A DNA stretch of 64,000 nucleotides, taken from Candidatus Roizmanbacteria bacterium. GTDB taxonomy: Bacteria; Patescibacteriota; Microgenomatia; UBA1406. Of this stretch, positions 21,908 through 22,096 are shown piece by piece. Position 1 is the first letter of the stretch, and each line of letters starts with the position of its first letter. The notes below the pieces were generated by a model that was not told the DNA's origin, did not search any database, and saw only the letters and a list, made by a program, of their open reading frames with translations. The DNA is taken from positions 288,626 to 352,625 of the forward strand of contig JANLHL010000016.1 of NCBI GenBank assembly GCA_024654535.1. Direction: 5' to 3'. Made by a program: the position numbers and the translations under genes.

Positions 21908-22096
21908 CGGGATGTAGCTCAGATGGCTAGAGCGCTACGTTCGGCCTGCCCGCCGCACCGCAATTCGGGGATTAGCTCAGATGGCTAGAGCGCTACGTTC
22001 GGGACGTAGAGGCCGCCAGTTCAAGTCTGGCATCCCCGACCAAAGCTCTGGCAGGCGGGGACGTAGAGGCCGCCAGTTCAAGTCTGGCCATCCCGA
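21908..22096 (+). tRNA. Interrupted (outer) tRNA-Pro gene: 37-nt 5' half, ~115-nt insertion, 37-nt 3' half
   Basis: The 5' half is CGGGATG-TA-GCTC-AGATGGCTA-GAGC-G-CTACG-TTCGG. The 3' half is GA-CGTAG-AGGCC-GCCAG-TTCAAGT-CTGGC-CATCCCG-A. The acceptor strands pair perfectly with each other. No encoded CCA. Confidence 0.7.
21966..22042 (+). tRNA. tRNA-Pro(CGG), complete, located inside the insertion of the outer tRNA-Pro
   Basis: CGGGGAT-TA-GCTC-AGATGGCTA-GAGC-G-CTACG-TTCGGGA-CGTAG-AGGCC-GCCAG-TTCAAGT-CTGGC-ATCCCCG-A-CCA. Has C1-G72, A73 and G37. Confidence 0.9.

Follow-up and report, generated by a model that had tools for sequence, protein, structure and literature searches.

Nested transfer RNA genes of a Candidatus Roizmanbacteria bacterium and an apparently undescribed family of bracketed tRNA cassettes

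Two interrupted tRNA genes and their uninterrupted relatives

The window analysed here is a 64-kb stretch of contig JANLHL010000016.1 from a Candidatus Roizmanbacteria bacterium. Two of its transfer RNA (tRNA) genes, for tRNA-Pro(CGG) and tRNA-Ala(CGC), are interrupted by insertions that each hold a complete tRNA with the anticodon of the gene they interrupt, set between a GC-rich leader and a GC-rich trailer (the bracket). It appears that both insertions are members of a widespread and undescribed family of tRNA-gene cassettes in Patescibacteria; a literature search turned up no account of such nested genes or of the bracket motif. The window is cellular DNA with a GC content of ~40%, and its large open reading frames (ORFs) encode a P-type ATPase, a ClpB-like ATPase and PolX-PHP, DUF2207 and PMT_2 proteins. 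An MreC homologue adjoins one of the two nested loci. Five tRNAs are found in the window by ARAGORN and Rfam, and at both nested loci the inner tRNA alone is detected. The remaining three have AT-rich flanks, TATAAT-like boxes and no bracket. The motif is therefore not generic sequence around tRNA genes, a concern raised when the two loci were first noticed from the letters of the window (the original prediction).

The Pro insertion was delimited by comparison with relatives (related loci are numbered with the prefix L). In L139 and L140, whose neighbouring 587-aa protein is 95% identical, the outer tRNA-Pro gene is uninterrupted and follows the same 5' flank as in the window. The outer 5' part is identical to this uninterrupted gene, and the outer parts, once joined, are recognized by ARAGORN as tRNA-Pro(CGG). 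The only exon difference from L139 is the T-stem pair 52:62, which is G:C there, whereas the window has A:U in its outer and inner tRNA-Pro alike. In other words, positions 21945-22059, the span originally proposed, are exactly the insertion, and their removal gives the tRNA-Pro(CGG) of a close relative, one compensated pair apart. The empty site in L139 and L140 means that the insertion is scarless, and it is polymorphic (present or absent) among near relatives. G runs allow the junction to be read as 34/35, 35/36 or 36/37. An uninterrupted outer-type tRNA-Pro is also present in L141 (86%). L144 (76%) and L003 (73%), which come from one sample and were read together, show an outer-type tRNA; after it come a degenerate inner T-arm, the trailer, a CCCGCC hairpin and an outer 3' exon that has likewise decayed. 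L004 and L007 (49%) have a plain, unrelated tRNA-Pro.

At the Ala locus the empty site is provided by L008, in which synteny is kept and MreC is 75% identical. Its tRNA-Ala(CGC) is uninterrupted and equals the outer exons of the window except for T39A, a substitution that breaks the 31:39 pair of the window's outer gene. The exon boundaries were set by this empty site, brute-force splice guesses being uninformative. A further insertion in the outer gene, the hairpin E1, is absent from L008 and present in L009 and L044, and a CCCGCC...GGCGGGCAAG version of the hairpin occupies the E1 position in L050 and L096. The whole Ala composite is common to the window, L009 and L044 (81%). Two outer-exon substitutions distinguish the window from L009 (A39 in the window, A51 in L009), and both break stem pairs. 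A solitary tRNA-Ala stands at the same place in L011-L013 (68%), followed by the same 3' flank, and that of L011 is 91% identical to the window's inner tRNA-Ala. The inner and outer tRNA-Ala are distinct alleles (80% identity), each of which is found alone at this locus in some relatives. Empty sites in relatives, which the original prediction had suggested as a check, thus exist for both loci, and they bear out its placement of GGCGGG directly against the 3' exon (L139 for Pro, L008 for Ala).

Could these loci be the footprints of integrases, that is, remnants of tRNA-integrating elements that duplicated the 3' part of the gene as attL and attR? It is true that tRNA genes are classical integration sites, that such a duplication is found at a tRNA-Arg gene of the window (36432-37290), that displaced 3' halves occur in L003 and L112, and that a segment of ~3.9 kb beside tRNA-Pro is absent from L139. 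However, the topology is wrong. Each locus reads 5' half, complete tRNA, 3' half, and comparison with the empty sites reveals a simple insertion without any repeated 3' segment or flank. Furthermore, the inserts are merely 101-131 nt long, the conserved bracket has no counterpart in attachment (att) sites and no integrase was found among the Pfam-scanned neighbours. Such an origin is very improbable.

Table 1. Features of the two nested tRNA loci of the window
Feature	Position	Strand	Remarks
Outer tRNA-Pro(CGG), 5' part	21908..21944	+	Acceptor CGGGATG, D-arm, anticodon stem 5' strand, loop to G36
Pro insertion, 115 nt, in anticodon loop	21945..22059	+	By comparison with uninterrupted relative
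Pro leader bracket L, CCTGCCCGCCG	21945..21955	+	Starts at first base of insertion
Pro 5' spacer CACCGCAATT	21956..21965	+	U at -1 of inner tRNA; variable in family
Inner intact tRNA-Pro(CGG), CCA encoded	21966..22042	+	ARAGORN; Rfam tRNA 63.8 bits; acceptor CGGGGAT/ATCCCCG
Pro 3' spacer AAGCTCT	22043..22049	+	
Pro trailer bracket T, GGCAGGCGGG	22050..22059	+	Ends at last base of insertion; pairs with L
Outer tRNA-Pro(CGG), 3' part	22060..22096	+	G37 to A73, acceptor 3' strand CATCCCG
Pro exon-exon junction			DNA of uninterrupted gene in L139/L140, CTACGTTCGG then GACGTAG; predicted for a spliced outer RNA, CUACGUUCGG then GACGUAG with acceptor stem CGGGAUG/CAUCCCG
Outer tRNA-Ala(CGC), exon a	52664..52692	-	Positions 1-29, G3:U70 acceptor stem; identical to L008
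E1, 47-nt hairpin insertion CCCTCCG...GGCGGGGCAAG	52617..52663	-	At ~29/30 (28/29 to 30/31), outer anticodon stem; predicted hairpin
Outer tRNA-Ala, exon b, CATTCGCA	52609..52616	-	Positions 30-37, anticodon CGC inside
E2, Ala insertion, 108 nt	52501..52608	-	Exactly at 37/38, against L008 empty site
Ala leader bracket CCGCGCCCGCCG	52597..52608	-	Variant of L
Ala 5' spacer TAGCTT	52591..52596	-	
Inner intact tRNA-Ala(CGC)	52518..52590	-	G3:U70; ARAGORN; Rfam tRNA 70.4 bits
Ala 3' spacer CTCATAGTGA	52508..52517	-	
Ala trailer bracket AGGCGGG	52501..52507	-	Ends at last base of insertion; pairs with leader CCCGCC
Outer tRNA-Ala, exon c	52465..52500	-	Positions 38-73; as L008 except T39A

The neighbourhood of tRNA-Pro varies between relatives. 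L139 lacks ~3.9 kb downstream of the gene (window 22106-25829; compared with L139 2133-3000), a segment with a 322/349-aa ORF, a Big_7 protein and a cNMP-binding protein, and it likewise lacks a 135-aa membrane ORF upstream (21386-21793). Since segments are absent from both sides, the locus is a hot spot for changes in gene content. In L003 and L004, too, tRNA-Pro(CGG) has a homologue of the 322-aa ORF beside it.

Elsewhere in the window, the last 36 nt of tRNA-Arg(GCG) and some flank (CCCAGTTCGACTCTGGGCAGTCGCACAAAAAAACCG) are exactly repeated ~790 bp downstream (36432-37290, plus strand). The copies enclose one ORF (36519-37244, 241 aa) without significant Pfam match, and the arrangement resembles an att-type duplication on either side of a very small insert. 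In intron mode ARAGORN also proposes a tRNA-His(atg) with a 279-nt intron (54512-54879, minus strand), a false positive inside a long ORF (53502-55889). A phage origin of the window was rejected, as it has no phage similarity and its genes are cellular (P-type ATPase, ClpB-like, PolX, MreC); the 6 kb from 20000 to 26000 match known phages only over ~60-70 bases of tRNA sequence. A viral vector for the cassette was also rejected, a viral collection having returned three chance matches, all in coding DNA. A PolX-based genome scan for relatives gave two distant loci without synteny.

The bracket and its recurrence across metagenomes

The cassette is ordered as leader CCTGCCCGCCG, spacer, intact tRNA, spacer and trailer (CTTT)GGCAGGCGGG; in RNA the leader reads CCUGCCCGCCG and the trailer (CUUU)GGCAGGCGGG. 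Leader and trailer can pair in a helix of ~10 bp, made up of six pairs, one C.A mismatch and three or four further pairs. The insert begins and ends with the end bases of this helix, which is thus flush with both junctions. The Pro type and most relatives favour a pairing of CCUGCCCGCC with GGCAGGCGGG, which includes a U.G wobble and the C.A mismatch. As inverted repeats, CCTGCCCGCC and CCCGCCTGCC (the reverse complement of GGCAGGCGGG) match at 8 of 10 positions, flush with the insert ends. The original prediction paired CCCGCC with GGCGGG. This is possible at both loci, but is shorter than the pairing favoured by the Pro type and most relatives: among the instances listed by the metagenome scan described below, 34 of 51 have the flush helix as their minimum-energy duplex and 15 of 51, the Ala class among them, the shorter pairing. 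The (CCNG)n periodicity of the bracket permits three registers.

All of the strings quoted at the outset are present where they were placed, yet one of them, GCACCGC, is not a shared element. Its Ala copy consists of G35-C36-A37 of the outer loop plus the CCGC with which the insert begins, and its Pro copy lies in the variable spacer and is unconserved in other members. Within the 64-kb window GCCCGCC occurs 5 times (2.05 expected) and GCACCGC 8 times (3.2 expected), and the two stand side by side only at the nested loci. A role of the bracket as a DNA-uptake signal was rejected for this genome, given these five copies of GCCCGCC and a single copy of the 10-mer.

Further instances of the bracket do exist. 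A metagenome scan with the pattern GCCCGCCG N8-25 TAGCTCA N55-85 AGGCGGG returned at least 120 loci. Matches in high-GC contigs are chance, whereas those in contigs of 32-52% GC are nearly all nested tRNAs. Among the matches listed, deduplication leaves 49 unique low-GC instances, with inserts of 101-131 nt and 16 anticodons (Arg x4, Val x3, Thr x3, Ile x2, Pro x2, Met, Ala and Phe); member counts given below refer to these listed matches. The pattern fixes 15 bracket bases and the TAGCTCA of the cargo, which biases both the conservation of those bases and the range of cargo. Taxonomy was assigned for few of the contigs, three by exact protein look-up (Portnoybacteria, Roizmanbacteria and Curtissbacteria).

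Conservation extends to bases outside the search pattern. Leader positions 1-3 are C, C and T in 46, 43 and 45 of the 49 instances, and trailer positions -10 to -8 are G, G and C in 41, 47 and 41. The Pro leader L, with the CCT that the pattern leaves free, is conserved in 43 of 49, and 45 of 49 have a U.G wobble at position 3 of the helix. CTTT often precedes the trailer. The spacers vary between members, with mostly U at position -1 of the inner tRNA, and pairing from spacer to spacer beyond the bracket is not general (p=0.65). There are two sub-frames, ...NACTT[tRNA](GGC)AAGG... and ...[tRNA]GCTTTGG..., and each is found with several different cargo tRNAs. The Ala locus represents a variant subfamily, CCGCGCCCGCCG ... 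AGGCGGG, common to L009/L044, L050 and L096, and it has the additional hairpin E1.

The cargo follows a strict rule. In 18 unique cases removal of the insert restores a tRNA that ARAGORN recognizes, and its anticodon is that of the inner tRNA in 18/18. Over all 49 instances the flanks score 34.2 against their own inner tRNA and 20.1 against non-cognate ones. In the 495 kb of low-GC DNA examined, no credible split tRNA lacks an intact cognate tRNA inside it, and inner tRNAs score as normal tRNAs. The position of insertion is less strict. The anticodon loop, the target originally proposed, is indeed used (35/36 and 37/38), but so are the D-stem (23/24), the D-loop (21/22) and the T-loop (56/57), and the same isoacceptor is interrupted at different points in different contigs. 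There is no fixed flanking word among the members (AGA, TTA, TTC, TCA, ACA, TTG, CGG and others occur), and no target duplication was found at the two empty sites, nor one of 3 or 4 nt in any of 43 members (0/43). In these 43 the base before the insert is A in 32, G in 7, C in 4 and T in none. The Pro locus has every feature of the family: a flush bracket, a scarless insertion, an intact inner tRNA and an outer tRNA of the same anticodon.

Might the composites be products of chance, or assembly chimeras built from repeated tRNA sequence? Logan contigs do break inside these repeats (L003, L144). However, the same composite is present in independent NCBI, JGI and ENA assemblies, 49 unique instances share one bracket, and in low-GC DNA the pattern essentially never occurs outside nested tRNAs. 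Chance or artefact is hardly credible. The original argument for one common mechanism (a mobile tRNA cassette or a shared processing signal) over two accidents is borne out by a bracket that recurs with 16 anticodons in 49 instances and an inner tRNA that is always cognate.

The outer genes are in very different states. Removal of the cassette alone restores about 18 of 48 to tRNAs of normal length, and these are perfect cloverleaves with a mean of 20.5 pairs (20.9 for the inner tRNAs). Several of the others carry extra hairpins or truncations or lack a half, and in L050 and L079 the cassette directly follows AT-rich DNA, with no 5' exon. Hairpins resembling leader and trailer were seen in tRNA genes only within shells that are already interrupted. 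Some composites are nested more deeply. An Ile(UAU) nest in L070 (780-1180, plus strand) has three levels, the middle one with two extra hairpins and 95% identical to the inner tRNA of L031. A Thr(UGU) nest in L128 (4720-5130, minus strand) has four, and there a second, different bracket (CCCTCCCACCTTT / AAAGGCGGGAGGG) encloses a whole composite inserted in a D-loop. A Met tRNA that is outer in L118 has a 95% identical counterpart in L077, where it is the inner one.

Some side observations concern related structures. In L026, L030, L031, L065 and L083 the D- and T-loops of the interrupted outer tRNAs hold additional small, stable hairpins whose sequences are unrelated; examples are TTCCGCCAGAGGCGGATC and CACCCTTCGGGTGA, with a UUCG loop. 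Relatives of the bracket that lack cargo (CCTGCCTGC..GCAGGCAGG, CCCGCC..GGCGGG) lie in AT-rich intergenic DNA and inside interrupted outer genes. Perfect or near-perfect GC-rich palindromes resembling the bracket are intergenic in L030, L049, L068, L072, L117, L121, L131 and others, some followed by T runs as in terminators; apart from the two tRNA loci, the 64-kb window was found to have none. Different brackets surround a few of the nested tRNAs (e.g., L050, L128). Nested or half-duplicated tRNAs without CCTGCCCGCC were seen in L050 (minus strand, ~3380-3640), L030 (plus, ~5300-5570), L039 (minus, ~4150-4400) and L112 (minus, ~6650-6900), one of them a tRNA-Pro(CGG) enclosed by a 13-bp helix (GCCCCGTTAGATAT / ATATCTAACGGGGC). 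Given nested tRNAs that lack the motif, other bracket families probably exist.

Replacement, duplication or splicing

What is to be explained is the anatomy of the cassette and its precise insertion, the empty sites in relatives, the cognate rule, the way cassettes recur and nest, and the decayed state of many shells. From sequence comparison, the cassette is probably a replacement tRNA: the inner tRNA would be the working gene, the interrupted outer gene a decaying shell, and the unit would spread horizontally. The composite would be transcribed from the promoter of the resident, outer gene. A consensus promoter scan found nothing in or upstream of the composites, the GC-rich leaders being without promoter-like sequence; -10-like boxes upstream of outer genes were noticed by eye only. 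The bracket helix is proposed to close off the inner tRNA, so that its folding is not disturbed by the outer halves, which are very similar to it. It would then be freed by the ordinary RNase P and 3'-end enzymes, perhaps after cleavage of the helix by an RNase III-type enzyme. The outer shell would be dispensable, free to decay, gain GC hairpins or be deleted, and would become one layer of a nest once the inner tRNA is itself invaded.

One alternative is that nothing moves. The inner tRNA could have arisen by nested duplication in situ, within a GC-rich hairpin that was already there, with vertical inheritance and with the bracket as a processing or insulating stem. This would suit the long stretches over which inner and outer tRNAs are identical (positions 8-65 in Pro, where only the acceptor stems differ, by three compensated pairs; also L058, L098, L117 and L031). 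It would also suit the cargo-less GC-rich hairpins scattered in the intergenic DNA of these contigs and the lack of any transposase or target motif among the results. However, the Pro insert is present or absent between genomes with a 95% identical neighbouring protein, and the inner and outer Ala alleles, at 80% identity, each occur as solitary genes at the same locus in relatives. The Arg(UCG) cargo is more alike across contigs (77-87% identity) than are the shells (64-68%), one tRNA type can serve as cargo here and as shell in a different contig, and one bracket frame holds different cargo at different positions. In situ duplication is therefore unlikely.

If the replacement cassette is mobile, how does it move? 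Between relatives it would spread, probably, by homologous recombination through the conserved tRNA exons. Recombination of this kind fits the cognate rule, the absence of a duplication and the T-stem marker shared by the outer and inner Pro genes. New positions, new cargo and shells of 64-68% identity are beyond recombination, and a bracket-dependent insertion step would therefore be needed as well.

Several points weigh against a replacement cassette that spreads in this manner. The identity of the Arg(UCG) shells is too low for recombination by exon homology. The strict sequence of the bracket, the positions of its U.G and C.A and its flush geometry exceed what a mere insulating stem needs, and together they imply a sequence-specific partner. 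Conservation at the 15 pattern bases is, for its part, by construction, since the family was collected with that pattern. No mobilising enzyme, no target motif (in the listed members) and no autonomous element was found, nor any larger bracket-bounded element with an ORF in ~495 kb of low-GC loci. The 18 intact outer genes equally fit an outer gene that still functions, or they may be recent insertions. Finally, the outer exons, E1 and spacers of the window differ from those of L009 by ~3-6% and the 3' flank by ~12%, and such low divergence is unexpected for junk.

Candidates for a mobilising enzyme were considered. Pfam found no recombinase domain in the neighbouring ORFs, several of which have no Pfam match at all. 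The 322-aa ORF beside tRNA-Pro and the ORF between the tRNA-Arg repeats were rejected as recombinases by Pfam, and they are mutually unrelated. A shared junction dinucleotide of the serine-recombinase type suits Pro (GG) and was rejected because it fails in most listed members.

What if the outer gene is not a shell at all? The main rival holds that the insert is a true intron: an endonuclease and a ligase would excise bracket-marked inserts wherever they lie, one gene would yield two tRNAs, and hairpin-only insertions such as E1 would be removed likewise. A single conserved helix has both junctions at its base and would bring the exon ends together. The insertions are scarless, use many positions and can be several per gene, as in intron-rich archaeal tRNAs. 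In 18 cases the outer gene is perfect once the insert is removed, the three compensated pairs by which the Pro acceptor stems differ leave both stems intact, and conservation between the window and L009 is higher in the outer exons and E1 (~3-4% divergence) than in the flank (~12%). Nevertheless, the junctions cannot be drawn as a bulge-helix-bulge, a group I core is lacking, and protein-dependent tRNA splicing is not known from bacteria. Most outer genes are broken or truncated beyond the insertion, and L050 and L079 keep the cassette without a 5' exon. No interrupted tRNA without an intact cognate inside was found in 495 kb, bracket-type hairpins in tRNA genes were seen only in shells already interrupted, and the strict same-anticodon rule would be needless were the outer gene functional. 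The intron explanation is thus possible and doubtful. Its more specific form, in which a protein-dependent system of Patescibacteria cuts both strands at the base of the bracket helix and rejoins the exons to give two tRNAs per gene, is a little more doubtful again. That system might also remove the many short insertions known in Patescibacterial ribosomal RNA (rRNA) and tRNA genes.

Each outcome would matter. As a replacement, the cassette would be a minimal selfish, or at least self-compensating, genetic element, one that destroys an essential single-copy tRNA gene and supplies the substitute within the same 110 bases; repeated rounds of insertion would leave Russian-doll genes. It would offer a concrete route for tRNA alleles between distant lineages. 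Standard tRNA finders report the inner tRNA only, which makes nested genes invisible in current annotation, and nested tRNAs should be considered in tRNA censuses, codon-usage studies and phylogenies of the candidate phyla radiation. The strictly conserved bracket points to an enzyme, either a mobiliser at the DNA level or a nuclease at the RNA level. If instead the insert is an intron, this would be protein-dependent tRNA splicing in Bacteria, the first that is not self-splicing, with a bearing on the origin of tRNA introns and split tRNAs.

Comparison with known systems

One precedent is the group I intron, which interrupts anticodon loops of bacterial tRNAs, including at 35/36 in Patescibacteria (Nakagawa et al., 2026; PMC13011429). 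The cassettes are alike in phylum, in anticodon-loop interruption (often 35/36 or 37/38), in scarless insertion and in the terminal G, although this last base is fixed by the search pattern, all listed inserts ending in ...GGCGGG. They are unlike group I introns in their length (101-131 nt), in also using the D-arm and T-loop and in carrying a full cognate tRNA. No group I catalytic core (P3-P9, Rfam model Intron_gpI) was found: Rfam (gathering threshold for the window; E<=10 for both loci) returned only the inner tRNAs. The hallmark U before the insert is G in Pro, A in Ala and U in 0/43 members. A group I intron was rejected on these grounds (no catalytic core, U never before the insert in listed members, too short).

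The likeness to archaeal tRNA introns and the split tRNAs of Nanoarchaeum lies in the many positions, the several insertions per gene, the recurrence of related inserts and the GC-rich complementary sequences that join the two halves. In contrast to archaeal introns, the cassettes have a bacterial host, a sequence-conserved bracket, a complete tRNA of the same anticodon as cargo and many host genes that look dead. A bulge-helix-bulge intron was rejected, because the two junctions face one another where a single 10-bp helix begins; by inspection, no register with two 3-nt bulges and a 4-bp helix was found at the Pro or Ala junctions. No Pfam match to an EndA-family endonuclease or an RtcB-type ligase was found among the submitted ORFs of the 64-kb window.

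Islands and prophages that integrate at tRNA genes also target such genes and offset the damage with replacement tRNA sequence. They differ in that the cassette brings a whole tRNA and not a 3' half, is nested and not flanked by attL/attR, is ~110 nt long and comes with no integrase that was found. Another resemblance is to repetitive extragenic palindromic (REP)/REPIN elements, miniature inverted-repeat transposable elements (MITEs) and the Rickettsia palindromic elements. The likeness lies in terminal inverted repeats that are short, GC-rich and imperfect, in cargo-less hairpin relatives between genes and in insertion into genes for structured products. However, the cassettes have no target-site duplication or fixed target word, they carry a predicted functional tRNA, and every listed instance is inside a cognate tRNA gene or its remnant. 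The inverted repeats do lie at the very ends, as in MITEs; a typical MITE was rejected for lack of target duplication and fixed target. An IS200/IS605 or REP/RAYT element was rejected too, since flanks vary and leader and trailer pair with each other and are not self-complementary.

A second structured RNA is also held inside a tRNA precursor, and released by processing, in the case of the C/D box RNA in the archaeal tRNA-Trp intron and of synthetic tRNA scaffolds. What sets the cassettes apart from both is that a tRNA is embedded in another tRNA whose identity it shares, and that the host tRNA is apparently sacrificed.

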